Below are positions 2,799 to 16,878 of a DNA stretch of 64,000 bases, piece by piece. The stretch covers positions 4,368,479 through 4,432,478 of the forward strand of contig OZ243926.1 of assembly GCA_965213765.1 (NCBI GenBank), read 5' to 3'. Made by a program: the position numbers and the translations under genes. How positions within the stretch are numbered: position 1 is the stretch's first letter; each line of letters starts with the position of its first letter. The DNA comes from Rhodospirillales bacterium. GTDB lineage: Bacteria > Pseudomonadota > Alphaproteobacteria > Rhodospirillales > UBA2165. The notes below the pieces were generated by a model that saw nothing but the letters and a program-made list of their open reading frames with translations, did no database searches and was not told where the DNA came from.

Positions 2799-3305
2799 CT
2801 AGTCGCCGCTCTCGTCGTACAGCCCCCGCGACTTGTGCCAGTCCTCGATCCCTTCATCCGGATAATGATCGAACCGCGGATTTGCCTCGTCTTCGTCGGG
2901 GATCAATACCCAGTCCGGTTTGTGGGCGAGCATGAAGTGCTTTTGCTCGGGCGGGACCGGCAGCGGCGTATCGATCACGCCGGCGATGGGGTAAAACCAC
3001 TGACCGTGCTGGGGGTTGTGGTTCCACATGACGGTTCCGCACTGCGTGCAGAACGACCGGCCACCGGCGTTGCGGCCGTCTTCCGCGTACGAGTCCCGGT
3101 CGTTGTTGTTGTGCCGGTAGAGCTTGAGATTTTCCTCGCCTTCAATCTCCAGCGTGTCGTATTCGCCCATGATGTTGATGGTATAACCGCCGCCGCCGGC
3201 CACCTTCCGGCAGATGGAGCAATAACACCGATTGACCGCATAGGGTGTGTGAGAGATGCAGGAAAACTTCACGGCGCCGCAAAGGCAGGATCCTTCAAGC
3301 CGCAT
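2799..3305 (-). CDS. GFA (glutathione-dependent formaldehyde-activating / CENP-V-like) family protein
   Basis: 168 aa with GSCLCGAVKF at the N-terminus plus CYCSICRK and FCTQCG. This is the Cys-rich zinc-binding pattern of the GFA domain. Confidence 0.75.
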   Translation of the reverse strand: MRLEGSCLCGAVKFSCISHTPYAVNRCYCSICRKVAGGGGYTINIMGEYDTLEIEGEENLKLYRHNNNDRDSYAEDGRNAGGRSFCTQCGTVMWNHNPQHGQWFYPIAGVIDTPLPVPPEQKHFMLAHKPDWVLIPDEDEANPRFDHYPDEGIEDWHKSRGLYDESGD

Positions 3306-4678: not shown

Positions 4679-6268
4679 CTACCAGACCCCGATGTAGACG
4701 CGCCGCTTTTCCGGCGGGTGGTAGACCGAGTGTCCGCGCCGGGCGAGCGGTTCCTCACCGACGGTGGTGCGGAAATTCCGGGCGAGGAAGTTCTCCGTCA
4801 GCATCTCCCGCATCCGGCTCCGAATTTCCTCATAGGCGGGGTCGGCGCCGAGGTCGGTGAACTCGTTGGGATCGTCCTCGAGGTCGTAAAGTTCCGGGCG
4901 GAACTTCAGGTGGTGGATGTACTTCCACTTGTCGGTGCGGATCATAATGGCGCGTGCTTCGCGGGCGGCGATGCCGAGTGCGTCGAGGTCTATCCGCGGT
5001 GCAAATTCCGATTCACAGATGACATAGTCCCGCCAATCGCCGGGCTGCTCCCCGTGCAGAATGGGCAGCAATGATTTGCCCTCCACCACGTGTTCGGGAA
5101 TCGTCCCGCCTGCCACTTCGATAAAGGTGGGGACGAGGTCGATGCTCTCGATGAACCTGTCATCGACGGTGCCGCGGGTTGCGTCGGATGCCGGGTCCGG
5201 ATCGTAGACAATGAACGGCAGCCGGATACTCTCTTCGTGAAACAACTCCTTCTCGCCGAGCCAGTGGTCGCCGAGGTAATCACCGTGGTCCGACGTGAAA
5301 ACGATCATGGTGTCGTCCATCCGGCCCTTCTCTCCCATGAAGGCGAACAGCCGGCCCAGGTGATCATCAAGCTGTTTGATCAGCCCCATGTAGGCGGGGA
5401 TAACCACTTCCCGCACTTCATCCCGGGAGAAGGCTTGGCAGTCCTCACGCCGGTGGTAGGTCCGATAGACCGGGTGGTCGGTCTCCAGTTCTTTCGGGTG
5501 ACGGTTGGCGGGCAGAATGTCGTTGCCCCCGAACATGTCGTGGTACGGCGCCGGTGCGATATACGGCCAGTGGGGCTTGATATAGCTGAGATGCATGGTC
5601 CACGGGTCGTCGCCGCATTCTTCGATGAACTGCATGGCGCGGCCGGTCATATAGGCGGTTTCGGAGTGCTCCTCTTTCACCCTGGCCGGATACTTGCTGT
5701 TGCGCAGATACCAGCCCGAAAGAATCTCGCCGTCGGGCCCCTCGGCCGAGTTGGCGAAATCGTGCCAGGGATTTGGGCTGTCGTAGCCCTGTTCCCTCAT
5801 CCAATTGTTGTAAGCGAGATTCTCCGGCGCCATCTCGGCGGTGCCCCATAGGCCGTCGTCCCGCTCGTAAGGCTCGAAGCCGCATTCGGCGACCAGCACG
5901 CCCTCGATGGAGTTACGGTCGATCTTGAGGCGCTTCATCCCGCCTTGGTCGGCAATCATATGGGTCTTGCCGACGAGGGCCACCCGGTGGCCCAGCGGGC
6001 GCAGGTAGTCGCCGATGGTCAATTCATCGACCGACAGCGGGACGCCGTTCCACACCGCGCCGTGGGTAAAGGCGTAGCGCCCGGTGTAGAACGACATGCG
6101 GGAGCCGCCGCAGACCGGGGCCTGACAATAGGCACGGGTAAACCGTACGCCTTTTGCCGCCAAGGCATCGATGTTGGGTGTTTCAAGTCGCGGGTGACCG
6201 GCGCAGGACAGATAGTCGTAGCGAAGCTGGTCACACATGATGAACAGAATGTTCTTGGTCTTGCCCAT
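4679..6268 (-). CDS. sulfatase / phosphonate-monoester-hydrolase-like enzyme (alkaline phosphatase superfamily)
   Basis: MGKTKNILFIMCDQLRYDY...APVCGGSRMSFYTGRY...VFTSDHGDYLGDH. GGAGG lies 10 nt upstream of the ATG at 6268. The formylglycine motif reads C-G-G-S-R rather than C-x-P/A-x-R. Confidence 0.8.
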   Translation of the reverse strand: MGKTKNILFIMCDQLRYDYLSCAGHPRLETPNIDALAAKGVRFTRAYCQAPVCGGSRMSFYTGRYAFTHGAVWNGVPLSVDELTIGDYLRPLGHRVALVGKTHMIADQGGMKRLKIDRNSIEGVLVAECGFEPYERDDGLWGTAEMAPENLAYNNWMREQGYDSPNPWHDFANSAEGPDGEILSGWYLRNSKYPARVKEEHSETAYMTGRAMQFIEECGDDPWTMHLSYIKPHWPYIAPAPYHDMFGGNDILPANRHPKELETDHPVYRTYHRREDCQAFSRDEVREVVIPAYMGLIKQLDDHLGRLFAFMGEKGRMDDTMIVFTSDHGDYLGDHWLGEKELFHEESIRLPFIVYDPDPASDATRGTVDDRFIESIDLVPTFIEVAGGTIPEHVVEGKSLLPILHGEQPGDWRDYVICESEFAPRIDLDALGIAAREARAIMIRTDKWKYIHHLKFRPELYDLEDDPNEFTDLGADPAYEEIRSRMREMLTENFLARNFRTTVGEEPLARRGHSVYHPPEKRRVYIGVW

Positions 6269-6428
6269 GAGCGGGGGGCCTCCAGGGGTCATGATTTGCC
6301 GACATGTAACGTGCCCGGCGGGCAGCGCATATATGCCCATTTGCTATCGCTGATGTTAAGCGAAATTCGTCGGCCAGGCAGGGGGCTTGGCGGCGATTGA
6401 CTCCCTTGGCCGATGTGCGGACGATTAA

Positions 6429-6692
6429 CCCGCATTTCCCGCCAGGGTCATGGTCTGCGCGGCGTTCTCTGGTCGGCGGAGCAGGAGAGGCGCGCCGCGC
6501 GATGCGGTGACATCGGGCAAGCGCCTCGACGCACGCTGTCGACCAGAGAACGCCGCCCTTCGGGTCGCGCCCCGGCGCCTGCCCGCGGCGTCGCGGCCCT
6601 CAACCGTAGTCGCCGCTACGCTTTTCGGGCCGCTCCTGGCGGCTCGGCCGCCTGGACGCGACGCAGGCCGTGACCCTGGTGAGAAATGCGGG
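6429..6692. mobile_element. 264-bp MITE-like non-autonomous element, copy 1, flanked by TTAA/TTAA
   Basis: Near-identical to 13431-13694. The termini CCCGCATTTCCCGCCAGGGTCATGG and CCGTGACCCTGGTGAGAAATGCGGG are inverted repeats. There is an internal 17-bp inverted repeat (6459-6475 and 6540-6556). No credible ORF. Confidence 0.8.
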
Positions 6693-6790
6693 TTAAGGTT
6701 CCGGGACACGTCCACGCAGTTTCACATCCAACTGCTTCATGACCCGGGTGACGCGGCGCGGGGGTTTGCGGACGAATTCCCCGGCGGGAT

Positions 6791-8044
6791 CTAAGCCTCC
6801 GGAAAATGCTCGGCGCGAAACGCCGAGAGCGGCATCGGGTCGGACCCGGTATCCTCGATCCACATGTCGAAGACAATTTCGTTGTCCGGCGTGACTTCGA
6901 TCAGCCGGGCCCGGCAAAATCCGGCTTCGACATCCATATGGGGAACGCCGTCCTTCGTGACGATCCCGCCATAGGTGATGAACGTGTTGCCCGTCTTGGG
7001 CAACCGGAAGGCGCCGCACTGGTAGGTGGCGTAAAGCCGCTCGCCGGGCGCGTCACCATAGGACCAAACCTGTTCGACGGTCATGGCATCCTCGTCGACC
7101 CGGAACTCGACTGCGCGGCTGGTATTTTCTTCCGGCGGGATACCGGGATTGAACGGCGTCGCCCGGAGGTTTCCATTGTCGAAACACATTACCGTGCCCG
7201 ACGGCGTCACCGAGCAGTCGTGCTGATGGAACTGCCAGCCCACCTCGCCGATGGGCTTGAGCAGTTTCTCGGACCACGGCGGCGTCCAGTTGTCGTGGGT
7301 GCCGAGAATCCACATGAGGCCGCCCGAGGCCCGGTCGAATTTGATGATGCAGTCCTGGGTCCGAAGGGACACCAGAATTCCGCCGTCCTTGGGATCTTCG
7401 GCGGTGCCGTTGGCATGGCACCAGTCGAAGGAGTCGGCGAAGCCGCGGTTGCGCCAGTAGCCTGACCGGGTGCCGTAGCACATCCGGTACGGGTCCAGCA
7501 TATCCAGGATGCGCCATTGATTGATGACGGCGCCGCCGGGGGTTACCTCGCAAATTATGTCGCCGACCACATTCGCGGTCTCGGTGGGAGCGTCGGGATC
7601 CGTCTCGCTGCCCGGCCAGTTGTCGAAAGTACGGACTTCGGCGGACATCAGAAGCAGGTTGCCGTTGCCCAACATGTTGATGGCGTGATGGGTGAGGGGA
7701 AGGTCGATGGGGATGCCGCCTTCGGGCACCTCCTTGTCCCGCCATTTTCCGGCGACGTACCAGTGGCGGACAATGTCGCCGTCCCGGGTCATTTCGTAAA
7801 TCCGCCCGATGCCGGTCTCGGAGAAGAGGACATTGCCGTTCGGCAGGCGTCGATTGTCCTGCACCGGCTCTCCGCCGGAGTAATTGAGCGCGATGTCACC
7901 GCGTTGGTCGACGCCCAACAACCATCCGCGGCCGACCGTATTGTCGGCCCGGCCGCCGGGCCGAACGTTGAACACCATCATGCCCGGCTCCCGCCGGGCG
8001 GTGTCGCAGACGTCAATGTGGTATGGCGGCAAGCTGCCGGTCAT
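6791..8044 (-). CDS. arylsulfotransferase (ASST)-like beta-propeller protein
   Basis: ORF 6791-8050. The ATG at 8044 is preceded by a G-rich SD. Motifs LPNGNVLF, HHAINMLGNGNLLL, CHANG, QHDCSV and FDNGN resemble the ASST family. No signal-peptide-like N-terminus. Confidence 0.6.
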   Translation of the reverse strand: MTGSLPPYHIDVCDTARREPGMMVFNVRPGGRADNTVGRGWLLGVDQRGDIALNYSGGEPVQDNRRLPNGNVLFSETGIGRIYEMTRDGDIVRHWYVAGKWRDKEVPEGGIPIDLPLTHHAINMLGNGNLLLMSAEVRTFDNWPGSETDPDAPTETANVVGDIICEVTPGGAVINQWRILDMLDPYRMCYGTRSGYWRNRGFADSFDWCHANGTAEDPKDGGILVSLRTQDCIIKFDRASGGLMWILGTHDNWTPPWSEKLLKPIGEVGWQFHQHDCSVTPSGTVMCFDNGNLRATPFNPGIPPEENTSRAVEFRVDEDAMTVEQVWSYGDAPGERLYATYQCGAFRLPKTGNTFITYGGIVTKDGVPHMDVEAGFCRARLIEVTPDNEIVFDMWIEDTGSDPMPLSAFRAEHFPEA

Positions 8045-8093
8045 CGTCAATCCCCCCTGATCGCCGGCGCGTCATTCCGCGCCGGCCACAGTG

Positions 8094-12537: not shown

Positions 12538-12693
12538 GGTCAAATACGGCCAATCACCCCACATCTTGTGGATAACGTCGTTTTGTACCCTATCCATTGT
12601 CCATATATTGTCTGTGTTAGCTCTTCCCCGACCGCTGACAGGGCGGTCTCCGCCGGCAACGGGGGGAAGTTACGATGGCGTTCGTTGCGCTGA

Positions 12694-13437
12694 TCAGGCA
12701 GGCGCGGTCACTTCGGTCTGCGCCAAACATGACAACGCCCGGTCGACGATCAGGTCGGCCATGATCGGTGCCGTCCCCAGTGGCGGACACAGGTACAATT
12801 GCCGCTCACCGGGCGCGCCAAGCCGGGCAGGGATGTCTTCGGCTCCATGAAACCCCGCGGCGAACAGATTGGGGAGCACGACCACATGGGGCCAGCCGGT
12901 GAATTCCCGCCAATCCTCGATCAGCGGATCGATCTCCAGAAACGCCGCCGTGCAGGAAGCGGCGCCGGTTTCGGCGAGAACGAATTCGGCCAGGCGGGCG
13001 GTCGACGTTTCCGACCGATTGTCGCGCCCGGTGCCGTGGCCCACGACGACGATATCGGTCCTGCCGAGATCGATGCCGGCGTTCCGTGCCTCGGTGAGAA
13101 CAAGGTCCGCCGCGACCGCCGGAATATCCGGGTGGGAGCCGATTGCTTTGGTCAGGGTGGTTCCGTCCTCATTGCCCAGCTCGTCCGGCAGGACTTCGCC
13201 GACGATGTAGCCGTCGGCCGCGAAATGAGGCACGACAACGACGGACCGGTCGCCGATTTGGCCGAGGACGGATTTGGCGAACGGTTCCTGCCGCAGGAAA
13301 CCGGAACGGACGTCGGCGAAAATCCCCCGTGACGCGATGTCCCGCGCATGTGAAGTCACCGCGTCGGCGGCCGTGGGCGCATCCGCGGCGCCGTGTCCGA
13401 CTACCAACAGGACCGTATCCTCAGGGCTAGCCCGCAT
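12694..13437 (-). CDS. cbiX: CbiX/SirB-type (two-domain) sirohydrochlorin chelatase
   Basis: LLVVGHGAAD...VVVVPHFAADGY in the first half and IVVVGHGTGRD...VVLPNLFAAGFH in the second. The annotated ATG (13435-13437) lies inside the MITE terminal repeat. Confidence 0.75.
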   Translation of the reverse strand: MRASPEDTVLLVVGHGAADAPTAADAVTSHARDIASRGIFADVRSGFLRQEPFAKSVLGQIGDRSVVVVPHFAADGYIVGEVLPDELGNEDGTTLTKAIGSHPDIPAVAADLVLTEARNAGIDLGRTDIVVVGHGTGRDNRSETSTARLAEFVLAETGAASCTAAFLEIDPLIEDWREFTGWPHVVVLPNLFAAGFHGAEDIPARLGAPGERQLYLCPPLGTAPIMADLIVDRALSCLAQTEVTAPA

Positions 13438-13694
13438 TTCTCACCAGGGTCATGGTCTGCGCGGCGCTGTCTGGTCGGCGGAGCAGGAGAGGCGCGCCGC
13501 GCGATGCGGTGACATCGGGCAAGCGCCTCGACGCACGCTGTCGACCAGAGAGCGCCGCCCTTCGGGTCGCGCCCCGGCGCCCGCCCGCAGCGTCGCGGCC
13601 CTCAACCGTAGTCGCCGCTACGCTTTTCGGGCCGCTCCTGGCGGCTCGACCGCCTGGACGCGACGCAGGCCGTGACCCTGGTGAGAAATGCGGG
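13431..13694. mobile_element. 264-bp MITE-like element, copy 2, flanked by CTAG/CTAG
   Basis: Same length and roughly 95 percent identical by eye to 6429-6692. Termini are CCCGCATTTCTCACCAGGGTCATGG and CCGTGACCCTGGTGAGAAATGCGGG. It is inserted between the cobA stop and the cbiX start. Confidence 0.85.
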
Positions 13695-14480
13695 CTAGCC
13701 ATGGGCCTGATGATCGCCGGAGCGCGCCGGCTCGAACCAGGCGAGTGTCTCGCCAAGCGACGCCACCTCGCCGATGATGACCAAGGTAGGGGCGGTGAGG
13801 CCTGCGTCGCCGACCCGCTCGGCGAGCGTTCCGAGAGTGCCGTGCACAACGCGCTGGTCCGGCGTCGAGCCGCGGTAGACGGCGGCGGCGGGCCGGTCGC
13901 TTTCGGCTCCCGCGTCCATCAGTTCCTGGGCGATCAATCCGAGATTGGCGAGGCCCATATAGACGACCAGCGTCGTCTCGCCGTCCGCCAAACTCGGCCA
14001 ATCGAAGTCGAGCGCCTGATTGTCCCGGCGGTGGCCGGTGATAACCCGAACGCTCTTGGCCAGCCCCCGGTGGGTCAGCGGAATTCCGGAATAGGCGGCG
14101 CAGGCGATCGCCGCGGTCACGCCCGGCACCACTTCGAACGGGATGCCGTTCTCCACCAGATGCACCGCTTCCTCCGAGCCGCGTCCAAAGACGAATGGAT
14201 CACCGCCCTTCAGCCGGACCACGCTCCGTCCTTCGCGGGCCAGGCGGACCAGCATGTCGTTGATCTCCTCTTGCGGCACTCCCTGTCGGCGGCTCGCCTT
14301 ACCGGCAAAAATGCGGGTTGCGCCGGTCGGGACAAGGTCCAGAACCTCATCCGAAACGAGCCGGTCGTAGACCACGACCTCGGCCGTTTGGAGCAGGCGC
14401 AATGCCTTGACCGTCAGAAGGTCCGGATCGCCGGGCCCGGCGCCGACCAGATACACGGTATGGGGTGTGCTCGCGGACAT
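13695..14480 (-). CDS. cobA: uroporphyrinogen-III C-methyltransferase (SUMT)
   Basis: VYLVGAGPGDPDLLTVKA, VVRLKGGDPFVFGRGSEE and VPGVTAAIACAAYSGIPLTHR. The stop TAG (13695-13697) lies in the CTAG duplicated by the MITE. Confidence 0.9.
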   Translation of the reverse strand: MSASTPHTVYLVGAGPGDPDLLTVKALRLLQTAEVVVYDRLVSDEVLDLVPTGATRIFAGKASRRQGVPQEEINDMLVRLAREGRSVVRLKGGDPFVFGRGSEEAVHLVENGIPFEVVPGVTAAIACAAYSGIPLTHRGLAKSVRVITGHRRDNQALDFDWPSLADGETTLVVYMGLANLGLIAQELMDAGAESDRPAAAVYRGSTPDQRVVHGTLGTLAERVGDAGLTAPTLVIIGEVASLGETLAWFEPARSGDHQAHG

Positions 14481-14489
14481 GGCCGCACC

Positions 14490-15071
14490 CTATTGGGCAA
14501 GCGCCCGCTCGACAAGCTCCCGCGCGCCGTCGCTCAGTTCGAGCGCGAGCGCCGCCTCGTGTCCCCGCGGACTCATCTTCCCCCAGGTCTTGCGGAGAAT
14601 ATCGACGATTTTCTCCGGATCGTGCCTGGCCGAGAAGCCGGACAGGTAATTCTCCAGGAACACGACGCAAATGGTGTCCTCCAAGAGCTGGGTATCGGGA
14701 TCGGACCGGAGGTTCTTCTTCCGCAGCATTGCCCGGACCTTCTCGATCTCGGTCTCGGCGTAGCCGCAGGCCGCCATGATTTCTCCCACCCGGTCCCCAT
14801 GAAACCGCCCGAGGTCGGTGCGCCAATGATGATAGCCCTTCTTGCCTTCCGGGTAACGGTCACGAGGCACCGTCCAACGTTCGATGTGCTGTGCGCGGGC
14901 AGCAATTCGAACGAGATCCGAGGCCTCGGGCGCCAGTCGTTCGAGACAGGCGGACATTCGGCGGCCATAGACCAGTTCCTTCGGCTGCTTTTCGCCGTCG
15001 ACGGTCTCCAGATTCGGATCCCGCGCATTGGCGGCGTCGATCATCTCGATGGCCTGCTCGACGTTTCCCAT
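14490..15071 (-). CDS. DUF4202 domain protein
   Basis: IDAANARDPN, RIAARAQHIERW, GYHHWRTDL, LEDTICVVFLENY and ILRKTWGKMSPRGHEAAL match my recollection of the DUF4202 family. Confidence 0.75.
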   Translation of the reverse strand: MGNVEQAIEMIDAANARDPNLETVDGEKQPKELVYGRRMSACLERLAPEASDLVRIAARAQHIERWTVPRDRYPEGKKGYHHWRTDLGRFHGDRVGEIMAACGYAETEIEKVRAMLRKKNLRSDPDTQLLEDTICVVFLENYLSGFSARHDPEKIVDILRKTWGKMSPRGHEAALALELSDGARELVERALAQ

Positions 15072-15274
15072 TGAACTCTCCCGCGCGGCATCTTAGCGCC
15101 GGCACGGCGTTCACGCACGCCGCGGACGTTTATCGGACTGTAAGACATCCCGGATAGGATCATGTTGTGGCGGCATTTACGATTTCCCGGCGGCATCGGA
15201 CGAAACCCTCGCTGATCCGGAATGCGCAATTGCGGCCGGGTTCCGGTCTTTCGAGGGCCTTGCGGCGGAGCGGC

Positions 15275-15303
15275 AAAAAAAAAGGGCCGCCTCCCGGCGG
15301 CCC
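15275..15303 (-). terminator. rho-independent terminator of the ABC substrate-binding protein gene
   Basis: The minus strand reads GGGCCGCC-GGGA-GGCGGCCC followed by T9. It lies 22 nt downstream of the stop at 15325. Confidence 0.75.
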
Positions 15304-15324
15304 AATAAACGCCCAACCGAGCGG

Positions 15325-16878
15325 TTAGTTCCACTCAATCAGATTGAACAGGAAACCTTCGGGCTTACGGTGACAACAGGTCGGTAGCTTGACCTCCTTG
15401 GTATGCGCCACCGCGGAGGCGATCGGTACGATTGGCATGGAGTAGCGCTCCTCGGTGACCCGGTCGAACAGCTTCTGATAAATGGCCTCGCGCTTGGAGA
15501 GGTCCAGTTCGGTCTGGCCCTGCTTGTGCCACGCCGCCAACTGCTTGTCGCCGTTGTAATTCCGCGAGCCCGGCAAATAGAAGAAGCCCGAGGTGGAGAC
15601 CACGTCGGCCTGACCGCCGCCGTTATCCCACAGGCTGACGAAGGCCTGAACCTTGCCCTGGGCGCGCTTCTTCACGAAACCGCCGATCGCGTTGTTGTCC
15701 ACCGTCGCCTTGATCCCCAGCTTACGCAGTTGGCCGGCAACCGCCTCGGCGGTTGGGCGCGACGGACCCCACGTTGTGAGCGCCAGCGAGAAGTCGGGGT
15801 CGACGCCCGCTTCCTTGAGCAGGGCCTTCGCCCGTTTGGGATCGTAAACCGGCGGCGACTTGGTAGCCTTACAGCCGGTATGCCATTCGTGACACATGGA
15901 GATTTGCAGCGGATCGCTGGCGACCGGTTCCGGTACCAGCGCCTTGGCCAGCCCTCGGCGGTCGATGGCATGCATCAATGCTTCGCGCACCCGCTTATCC
16001 TTGAAGATGCCGATCTTCGACCGGTCGGCGGCATCCACCATGAAATAGATGAACTGGACGGTGCGCCCGACGGTGACCTGCAGGTTCGGCATCTTGGCGA
16101 GGTTCACGGCCTGATCCTTGGTGATTTGGTAGACCATGTCCTGCTCACCGGCGATCAGCCGGGCGATCTGGGTCTGTTTGCTGGCGATGGTCTTGATTTC
16201 GACGCGGCCGATTTTCGCCGGTGATTTCGAGCCCTTCGCGGCGAGCTTGAAATTCGGGTTTTTTTCCAGCAACACGCCGGCGGTCGCATCGACCTTTGTG
16301 GCCATGTACGGGCCCGTCCCGATGGGCTTCAGACCAAACTTGCTGCGATCCTCAAGCTTGCTGTGAACGGCTTTGGGGAAGATCGGCAGCGACATTATGC
16401 GCGATTCGAACGGCGCATATGACGCCTTGGTGGAAATCCGCACCGTGTGATCATCCACTTTTACCGCCTTGCTATAGACCCCATAGCGGGTGCCCTTGAA
16501 TCGGAAGTTAACCTTGGGGTCCTTGACGAAGTCGAAGGTGTACACCACGTCGTCGGCGGTCACCGGCATGCCGTTGTGAAATTTGACGCCCTTGCGGAGC
16601 TTGTACTCGATGGTCAGGGGATCGACCCGGGTATACGACTCGGCCAACAGCGGCACCACCTTGCGCGCCTCGACGTCGTAGTAGACCAGCGTGTCGAAGA
16701 CCATCCGGTCCATCAGGTTGGTCTGCGGGTTCGGGTCGAACACGGCGTCGATCACCCGAATGGGCTGCGCCACCCCGACCCTCAGCGTGTCCTTGGACTT
16801 TTGCGCCGCGGCGGGATCGGCGACCGTCGCGAGAAGTACCGCCGCCCCTGCGGACAATGCGTAACGTGCGAATTTCAT
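15325..16878 (-). CDS. ABC transporter substrate-binding protein, family 5 (peptide/nickel/opine type)
   Basis: Start taken at MKFARYALSAGAAVLLATVADPAAAQ (signal peptide), with GGAGG upstream. LRVGV, FDTLVYYD, KFHNG and overall SBP_bac_5 architecture. Confidence 0.85.
   Translation of the reverse strand: MKFARYALSAGAAVLLATVADPAAAQKSKDTLRVGVAQPIRVIDAVFDPNPQTNLMDRMVFDTLVYYDVEARKVVPLLAESYTRVDPLTIEYKLRKGVKFHNGMPVTADDVVYTFDFVKDPKVNFRFKGTRYGVYSKAVKVDDHTVRISTKASYAPFESRIMSLPIFPKAVHSKLEDRSKFGLKPIGTGPYMATKVDATAGVLLEKNPNFKLAAKGSKSPAKIGRVEIKTIASKQTQIARLIAGEQDMVYQITKDQAVNLAKMPNLQVTVGRTVQFIYFMVDAADRSKIGIFKDKRVREALMHAIDRRGLAKALVPEPVASDPLQISMCHEWHTGCKATKSPPVYDPKRAKALLKEAGVDPDFSLALTTWGPSRPTAEAVAGQLRKLGIKATVDNNAIGGFVKKRAQGKVQAFVSLWDNGGGQADVVSTSGFFYLPGSRNYNGDKQLAAWHKQGQTELDLSKREAIYQKLFDRVTEERYSMPIVPIASAVAHTKEVKLPTCCHRKPEGFLFNLIEWN

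Follow-up and report, generated by a model that had tools for sequence, protein, structure and literature searches.

A miniature inverted-repeat element in the cobA-cbiX stop/start overlap of a Rhodospirillales bacterium, and the start codon it may have lent to cbiX

In MITEAba12, a transposable element of the miniature inverted-repeat kind (MITE) from Acinetobacter and the Moraxellaceae, the outward-reading bases of the repeat encode MQQS, the four residues with which adjacent coding sequences begin (PMC6382973). Start donation by the end of a MITE has already been described, and the case presented here, a MITE that lies between cobA and cbiX in a 64,000-nt stretch of DNA from a Rhodospirillales bacterium (the window, to which all coordinates refer; cobA, cbiX and the element are read on its minus strand), is a further instance. 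Both elements are non-autonomous, have terminal inverted repeats and target duplications, and donate starts. MITEAba12 is 113 bp long, prefers AT-rich targets, has a weak structure (about -24 to -27 kcal/mol) and a known parent, ISAba12, and outward promoters have been proposed for it (PMC6382973). In contrast, the element in the window measures 264 bp, has CTAG as its target, folds at about -195 kcal/mol, is without a promoter-like site and lies within a stop/start overlap.

The Correia elements of Neisseria (CREE/NEMIS) have repeats of about 26 bp, form a long hairpin when co-transcribed with neighbouring genes and duplicate TA; they are not known to land on TAG stops or donate start codons. 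Like the present element they are short MITEs with inverted-repeat ends; they can exert direct control over adjacent genes, and they bind RNase III, which either cleaves or protects them (abstract of PMC2649163). They are known for promoters and IHF sites (PMC3184786; abstract of PMC2649163). The Neisseria REP2 and Borrelia IR repeats differ in that they are without terminal inverted repeats, carry a promoter and are not transposon-like insertions with target duplications (PMC3184786). The likeness to the Correia elements is one of description. They differ in host, the hosts here being Alphaproteobacteria, and in length class, and the region has no Rfam match; I treat them as an analogue of the present element and do not count it among them. 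Structure-mediated translational coupling also has a precedent, for example from coat to replicase in phage MS2, where the upstream ribosome unmasks a buried downstream start. The model put forward below is alike in that the downstream start would be hidden by base pairing, its partner being sequence over or up to which the upstream ribosome moves. It is unlike MS2-type coupling in that the partner would be the second repeat of a mobile element, and the paired segment would begin at the upstream stop codon and not inside the open reading frame.

The junction is made up of the following features:

13695..14480, minus strand: cobA, uroporphyrinogen-III C-methyltransferase, 261 aa (PF00590, TP_methylase, E = 2e-59; TIGR01469, 313.7 bits with a cut-off of 185)
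13695..13698, minus strand: cobA-proximal copy of CTAG, of which 13695-13697 is the TAG stop of cobA
13431..13694, minus strand: body of the MITE, 264 bp, 73% G+C, with a Y-shaped fold of a terminal stem and two internal hairpins of about 100 nt each
13673..13694, minus strand: cobA-proximal terminal inverted repeat, which reads CCCGCATTTCTCACCAGGGTCA on this strand and makes up the 5' arm of the terminal stem in a cobA-cbiX transcript
13431..13452, minus strand: cbiX-proximal terminal inverted repeat, which reads TGACCCTGGTGAGAAATGCGGG on this strand, carrying a Shine-Dalgarno-like motif and the new ATG
13441..13445, minus strand: GGTGA, the Shine-Dalgarno (SD)-like motif, ending 3 nt before the ATG
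13435..13437, minus strand: element-derived ATG, putative present start codon of cbiX (MRASPEDT...)
13427..13430, minus strand: cbiX-proximal copy of CTAG, now parts of cbiX codons 3-4 (GCT AGC)
12694..13437, minus strand: cbiX, class II sirohydrochlorin chelatase, 247 aa (PF01903; best solved relative 4ccs CbiX, E = 4e-14)

The names that an earlier note on this DNA had given to the two genes are borne out by Pfam and NCBIfam. An exact-sequence look-up of the CbiX of the window gave no record, and the Paracoccus CbiX (4ccs) has been described as an alphaproteobacterial siroheme ferrochelatase (PMC4063343). On the minus strand the junction reads ...GAT CAT CAG GCC CAT GGC TAG, followed by the element from CCCGCATTTCTCACCAGGGTCA to TGACCCTGGTGAGAAATGCGGG and then by CTAG CCC TGA GGA TAC G. 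The ends of the element are CCCGCATTTCTCACC; its terminal inverted repeats are perfect over 22 nt, and their arms reach 45 nt at 89% complementarity. Excision of the element together with one CTAG leaves CATGGCTAGCCCTGAGG, in which ATG GCT AGC CCT GAG lies in the cbiX frame, just as the note had claimed. That the cobA-proximal CTAG regenerates the TAG can likewise be read directly in the sequence, where the cobA open reading frame ends ...DHQAHG-TAG within this copy. The native ATG of cbiX is stranded upstream of the element, and the outward repeat end reads ...GGTGAGAA ATG CGG G/CTAG C... (the slash being the element boundary) in the frame of cbiX, with the in-frame ATG (13437-13435) and the MRAS... 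N-terminus that the note had placed there. The cbiX open reading frame begins MRASPEDTVLLVVGHG... and reads MRASPEDT; with the repeat ATG as start the N-terminus is (M)RASPEDTVLLVVGHGAADAPTAADAVTSHAR, and the only change to CbiX is from MAS... to MRAS.... The two genes are indeed separated by an untranslated gap, but from the cobA stop to the cbiX ATG this amounts to 257 nt (13438-13694) and not to the 264 nt given in the note, because the ATG sits inside the element. The description of this gap as highly structured and G+C-rich holds (fold of -194.7 kcal/mol, z = -12.4; 73% G+C), and the open reading frames that overlap element copies (13452-15074, plus strand; 6425-6715, minus strand) have no Pfam match.

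Six orthologous cobA-cbiX junctions from other species (L113-L118) have about 92-94% nucleotide identity to the window and 86-88% CbiX protein identity, and further junction loci from relatives (L119-L123) were compared beyond these. One of the orthologues, L116, is without the element and has exactly the ATGGCTAG overlap that the earlier note had predicted for the ancestral state: it reads ...CAG GCT CAT GGC TAG TCT TGC GGA CAC C, cobA ends ...QAHG-TAG, ATG GCT AGT CTT is in the cbiX frame, and stop and start overlap by 8 nt. The note had named the lack of this overlap in relatives as grounds for refutation, and the comparison comes out in its favour. All element-free relatives start cbiX at ATGGCTA(G/A). 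Four other orthologues without the element (L114, L115, L117 and L118) have three tandem 10-nt units, (GGCTAGTCAT)-like, at about 2975-3005, and L123 has four GGCTAGTCAT-like 10-nt units at about 1945-1990. The unit duplicates the stop/start overlap itself, with cobA stopping in the first unit and cbiX starting in the last; slippage and the footprint of another element are both possibilities for the origin of the array. The full insertion is found at the same site in L119, whose CbiX protein is 98% identical to that of the window and whose element shares 257 of 264 bases with it. Filled and empty sites, namely the window and L119 versus L116, and elsewhere in the family L077 versus L012, differ by the element plus one target copy.

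Two further lineages hold decayed forms of the insertion. In L113, 33 nt of the element are left after a deletion between AGCGC repeats; CobA reads through the remnant and ends ...RADHDPGEK-TGA, the TGA overlaps ATG AGG GCT AGG as ATGA, and CbiX starts MRARPEDT. About 45 nt of the cbiX-proximal end are kept in L120, L121 and L122, before MRTN/MRTS. In front of this end, in all three, come about 190 nt of unrelated sequence. In L120 and L122 (1768-1975), where this stretch of about 190-200 nt has taken the place of the cobA-proximal part of the MITE, it contains GGGTCAAGCCCGGTGATGAC-type palindromes; it has 14-mers common to many other loci and is probably a second dispersed repeat family. The element has the same orientation in all three element-bearing lineages (window/L119, L113 and L120), and CbiX variants in the protein search begin with MRAS, MRAR, MRTN or MRTS, and also with MAS/MAN. 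In one metagenome protein, P0013 (413 aa), frameshifted cobA and cbiX segments are fused in one product, most likely an assembly or sequencing error at a repeat-prone junction.

Several features of the sequence suggest that the element-derived ATG is used as the start of cbiX. It is the only in-frame ATG available to the gene, and the part of the element that survives in both decayed lineages (L113; L120-L122) is the SD-ATG end beside cbiX. The ratio of nonsynonymous to synonymous substitution rates (dN/dS) of cbiX is 0.36 with the element present, 0.33 with a remnant and 0.33 at empty junctions, and to judge from these values the gene stays under purifying selection whatever the state of the element; the adh row of the same table, computed from the wrong strand, is disregarded. 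Alternatively, the element could be as described while its ATG is unused, the in-frame position being coincidental, and cbiX could start at a TTG at codon 11 (13407-13405; M-VVGHG...). This TTG is present in the window, L113, L115, L116, L117 and L123, it was chosen by the gene caller for P0011, and an ATG would fall in frame by chance in one frame of three. However, the TTG is replaced by CTG in L114 and L118, and the codons upstream of it vary mostly at third positions, by synonymous changes, and have taken up an in-frame 6-nt insertion in L117. In addition, residue 6 of the Paracoccus CbiX 4ccs aligns with residue 11 of the query, the solved protein having five residues before the equivalent strand, and the normal N-terminus therefore extends upstream of the TTG. 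As the specific retention of the repeat end in two decayed lineages and the family-wide enrichment of the ATG frame also speak against it, a start at the TTG is very unlikely.

This enrichment comes from a scan for exact matches of the 22-mer repeat in one genome per species, which gave at least 112 matching stretches (L001-L112); the family-wide figures for copies, flanks, repeat ends and gene frames all refer to the matches listed there. Genes that are coding right from the element boundary and read away from it use the ATG frame in 22 cases, whereas the two remaining frames account for 10 and 8 (P = 0.004; 0.011 without orthologous duplicates). Those that begin at element ends are real genes, among them the ones for a histidine kinase, an O-methyltransferase, a hydrolase, an amidase, LigA and a squalene/phytoene synthase. 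Pfam domains set in at about residue 8-28 of their products, and in several of them at least 20 codons pass before another start codon is met. A second case of a stop and a start at either end of one copy is found in L022 (7029-7330), where the upstream gene, ...HTVRGVGYCLRAG, with a C-terminus that looks like that of a response regulator, has the flanking TAG as its stop and the repeat ATG serves as start of the histidine kinase. Here the element's left-hand native flank (GTGCGGGCTAG) is similar to the repeat end (ATGCGGGCTAG), and the native reading GTG-CGG-GCT-AGG is reproduced. The element-derived start encodes the same MRAR N-terminus because the native flank already resembles the repeat end, a likeness that may be coincidence, target preference or an older remnant.

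The GGTGA motif to which the earlier note had drawn attention is present and pairs with the 3' end of the 16S rRNA at -7.4 kcal/mol; as a Shine-Dalgarno sequence its strength is modest, 18.5% of random 20-mers from the window pairing as well. The corresponding values are -6.3 kcal/mol for cobA, -7.9 kcal/mol for the DUF4202 gene upstream of it and -2.6 to -3.9 kcal/mol for element-free junctions. In the RNA model, the repeats and the CTAG copies pair into a perfect 26-bp stem at the base of the -194.7 kcal/mol fold. Opening the region from -15 to +12 around the ATG is predicted to cost 52.2 kcal/mol in the window versus 11.1-20.4 kcal/mol in relatives, and this cost drops to 22-29 kcal/mol if the model keeps the 12-15 nt behind the cobA stop unpaired, in the way a terminating ribosome would. 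A scan found no terminator-like sites inside the element, and for the one promoter type scanned, sigma-70-like, there was no match in 12600-15400. Co-transcription is the simplest assumption, because the element holds no promoter-like or terminator-like site.

I propose that the MITE inserted into the CTAG within an ancestral ATGGCTAG stop/start overlap of cobA and cbiX, in such a way that the CTAG on the cobA side rebuilds the cobA TAG and the outward repeat end offers cbiX a replacement in-frame ATG, while DUF4202, cobA and cbiX would probably still form one transcript. In this transcript the terminal stem would set the cobA stop opposite the new SD and ATG and bury both; most translation of cbiX would depend on a ribosome that opens the stem at its base as it completes cobA, and independent initiation would be strongly suppressed. 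The old coupling by overlap would have turned into structure-mediated coupling, probably with a lower CbiX output. In other lineages later decay would have lost the bulk of the element and kept its SD-ATG end, by which L113 would have regained a tight ATGA overlap. Taken as a whole, from the MITE in the overlap with its rebuilt stop and donated ATG to the stem-mediated coupling, I consider this explanation likely to be right, the coupling across the element being inferred from the folding model.

The start-site opening energy of 52 kcal/mol could also mean that the insertion uncouples and largely silences cbiX, with the 26-bp stem blocking initiation or being cut by RNase III, and that the gene is intact as the insertion is recent or CbiX is dispensable. 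The divergence between the window and L119 after the insertion is indeed slight (dS 0.021), which leaves little time for decay, Correia hairpins bind RNase III and are cleaved or protected (abstract of PMC2649163), and L113 has deleted the structure, as might be expected if the full element was costly. Against this, constraint on cbiX is not relaxed in element-bearing or remnant lineages (dN/dS 0.33-0.36), the cbiX genes of the window and L119 are without frameshifts or stops, and many other genes sit behind the same repeat end without another start, and I regard silencing as unlikely. A promoter inside the element that drives cbiX independently of cobA would have parallels in other MITE families for which outward promoters are documented, for example Correia and MITEAba12 (PMC6382973; PMC3184786). 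It is highly improbable here, though, given the absence of a match to the one promoter type scanned, the 73% G+C of the element and the copies' lack of orientation bias relative to neighbouring genes.

A number of points weigh against the proposed stem-mediated coupling from a donated ATG. Transcription through the element, the start site of cbiX and the coupling all rest on the reading of sequence. The SD match is unremarkable in a G+C-rich genome, as the random 20-mers from the window indicate, and in the model a terminating ribosome frees the ATG, whereas the limit of +15 to +18 has to be reached before the SD is freed too. The gene caller chose the downstream TTG (MIVGHG) in P0011/L123 despite an in-frame ATG upstream, and the family-wide enrichment of the ATG frame could reflect survivorship, with out-of-frame insertions into gene starts being purged. 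By analogy with the Correia elements, which according to the abstract of PMC2649163 bind RNase III and are cleaved or protected, cutting of the 26-bp duplex by this enzyme could uncouple cobA and cbiX. Finally, a local tree of 2454 nt of cobA, cbiX and adh does not unite the element-bearing lineages (0% bootstrap for such a clade); it pairs L120 with L115 (94% bootstrap) and L113 with L118 (75%), but is so nearly star-like that it is not decisive. Retention since one insertion is indistinguishable in these sequences from repeated insertion at a hot spot, and they do not discriminate, for the history of the site, between precise excision, recombination and repeated insertion at GGCTAGCC as a favoured target.

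The window holds another copy of the element:

6429..6692, minus strand: second copy of the MITE, intergenic, 256 of 264 positions identical, flanked by TTAA on both sides

This copy sits between the minus-strand open reading frames 4679-6340 (553 aa) and 6791-8050 (419 aa) and touches neither stop nor start. The 22-mer repeat occurs four times in the window versus 0.01 expected, and the further loci listed, at least 112, all come from assemblies of uncultured Alphaproteobacteria, Rhodospirillales or Defluviicoccus. Among the 82 copies with both ends 263/264 bp is the commonest length, and there are subfamilies of shorter and of longer copies; the 52 full-length copies are 89-97% identical to the consensus, and their terminal repeats are conserved at 97-99%. 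Besides L040 4816-4837, about 40 solo repeat ends are found in L001-L112, as remnants of 24-45 nt, and some of these directly precede genes in the ATG frame, for instance the NAD-dependent DNA ligase in L040 (MRAKEPAALTREE...).

Identical 4-mers stand on both flanks of 40 of the 82 copies. In 30 of the 82, as well as at the cobA-cbiX junction, the pair is CTAG/CTAG, and TTAA/TTAA, CTAA/CTAA and TTAG/TTAG also occur. The two candidate classes of parent have distinct target-site rules, IS630/Tc1-mariner elements duplicating TA, often within CTAG, and the IS5 group duplicating 4 bp of the form YTAR. With the copies oriented by their interior, most have NTAG as one flank and CTAN as the opposite one, which fits a TA duplication with G...C as the terminal bases of the element, while a 4-bp duplication accounts better for the pairs TTAA/TTAA (5 copies) and TTAG/TTAG. 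Mismatches between flanks are asymmetric, the outer bases varying and the inner ones being constant, a pattern that a pure 4-bp duplication model does not predict; the filled L077 and empty L012 have a CTAG target that is compatible with both. In its CTAG/YTAR target and its TA or 4-bp duplication the element resembles both IS630/Tc1-mariner-type and IS5-type elements, but differs from them in that no transposase with matching ends was found in the loci searched. No parent insertion sequence appeared in 0.96 Mb of host-genome loci plus the window when repeat-like ends 700-3000 bp apart and recurring large open reading frames were looked for, the candidates turning out to be only paired separate MITEs and orthologous genes. 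A distant-mode search of a plasmid collection with the element gave only short G+C-rich chance matches, and no Rfam family matches the element.

The earlier note's assignment of the element to the MITEs is upheld by its terminal inverted repeats, flanking duplications, lack of protein-family matches, dispersed copies and filled/empty sites. Structurally it has all that defines a MITE, a parent transposase being the one thing that did not turn up in the loci searched or in the plasmid collection. REP/REPIN repeats are short palindromes in inverted pairs that lack a target duplication and are associated with a RAYT transposase; the long terminal repeats, the flanking duplications and the clean filled/empty sites set the element apart from them. 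The MITE family is previously undescribed.

These genomes are poor in CTAG, by a factor of about seven (400 observed versus 2949 expected in the 0.96 Mb of L001-L112 plus the window), and about a quarter of the sites (106 of 400) flank MITEs. A gene reads toward the element at 88 of 205 repeat ends, and in 56 of these 88 its stop is the TAG of the flanking CTAG; 40 of the 82 copies have a gene stop on at least one side. Since 27% of unoccupied CTAG sites are gene stops too, the association with stop codons follows mostly from the choice of CTAG as target, and I reject a special affinity of the element for stop codons.

The Y-shaped fold, with its terminal stem and two internal hairpins, is conserved and supported by an alignment of 40 copies (A3). 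Paired positions have changed on both sides in 24 of 99 cases, where shuffles gave 8.8 ± 1.6 and slid controls 2-7, and the compensatory changes, including CG to GC swaps, are strong in the two internal hairpins. On the chosen strand the family alignment has 185 G·U versus 35 A·C cells. The minimum free energies of the two orientations are equal (-197.5 versus -197.4 kcal/mol), and a search for an orientation bias of the copies relative to neighbouring genes found none. On these grounds a strand-specific RNA function is rejected; because the fold is equally good on both strands and the copies have no orientation bias, I read it as a property of the element and not of one transcript. The compensatory variation suggests palindromy that is maintained at the DNA level or on both strands.

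Upstream of cobA lie the following features:

14490..15071, minus strand: DUF4202 gene (Pfam), directly upstream of cobA
15303-15284: terminator-like site of the gene preceding DUF4202 (promoter/terminator scan)

The DUF4202 gene is apparently the first of the DUF4202-cobA-cbiX gene string, and this gene order is the same in relatives. A sub-threshold Rfam match to suhB/mmgR at 15269-15329 on the minus strand (25.5 bits versus a gathering score of 41, E = 0.029) overlaps the terminator-like hairpin behind an open reading frame of 528 aa, which in orthologous loci is the gene of an SBP_bac_5 solute-binding protein; the match is probably just the terminator.

The interest of the junction lies in a clean evolutionary series of several states at one site, and in the idea of coupling that is preserved by a terminal stem. 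In genomes that are about 92-94% identical, the same junction occurs as an 8-nt overlap, with a full MITE and an exchanged start codon, with a MITE that has been replaced in part, and with a 33-nt remnant that has a new ATGA overlap and chimeric CobA and CbiX termini. The junction is a concrete case of how a mobile element can alter one gene's start codon and another's C-terminus and leave both genes alive, and in CTAG-poor genomes target choice alone steers the element to stop codons. For annotation it matters that cbiX and at least 12 other genes begin inside the repeat end, where gene callers may misplace starts. Any biochemical consequence of the insertion would lie in the ratio of CobA to CbiX for siroheme or cobalt chelation. 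If stem-mediated coupling holds, it would be a simple way for MITEs to sit inside operons, and one that could be transferred to the design of synthetic operons. A more speculative thought, which I hold to be doubtful, is that the family acts as an operon-compatible cassette and not merely as a tolerated parasite, by virtue of a CTAG target that falls onto TAG stops, an outward SD and ATG at both ends, a stem that sets stop facing start, and coupling kept across 257 nt. Were this true, such features would let the element colonise gene junctions cheaply, and internal deletion would leave chimeric termini and new overlaps behind, as in L113.

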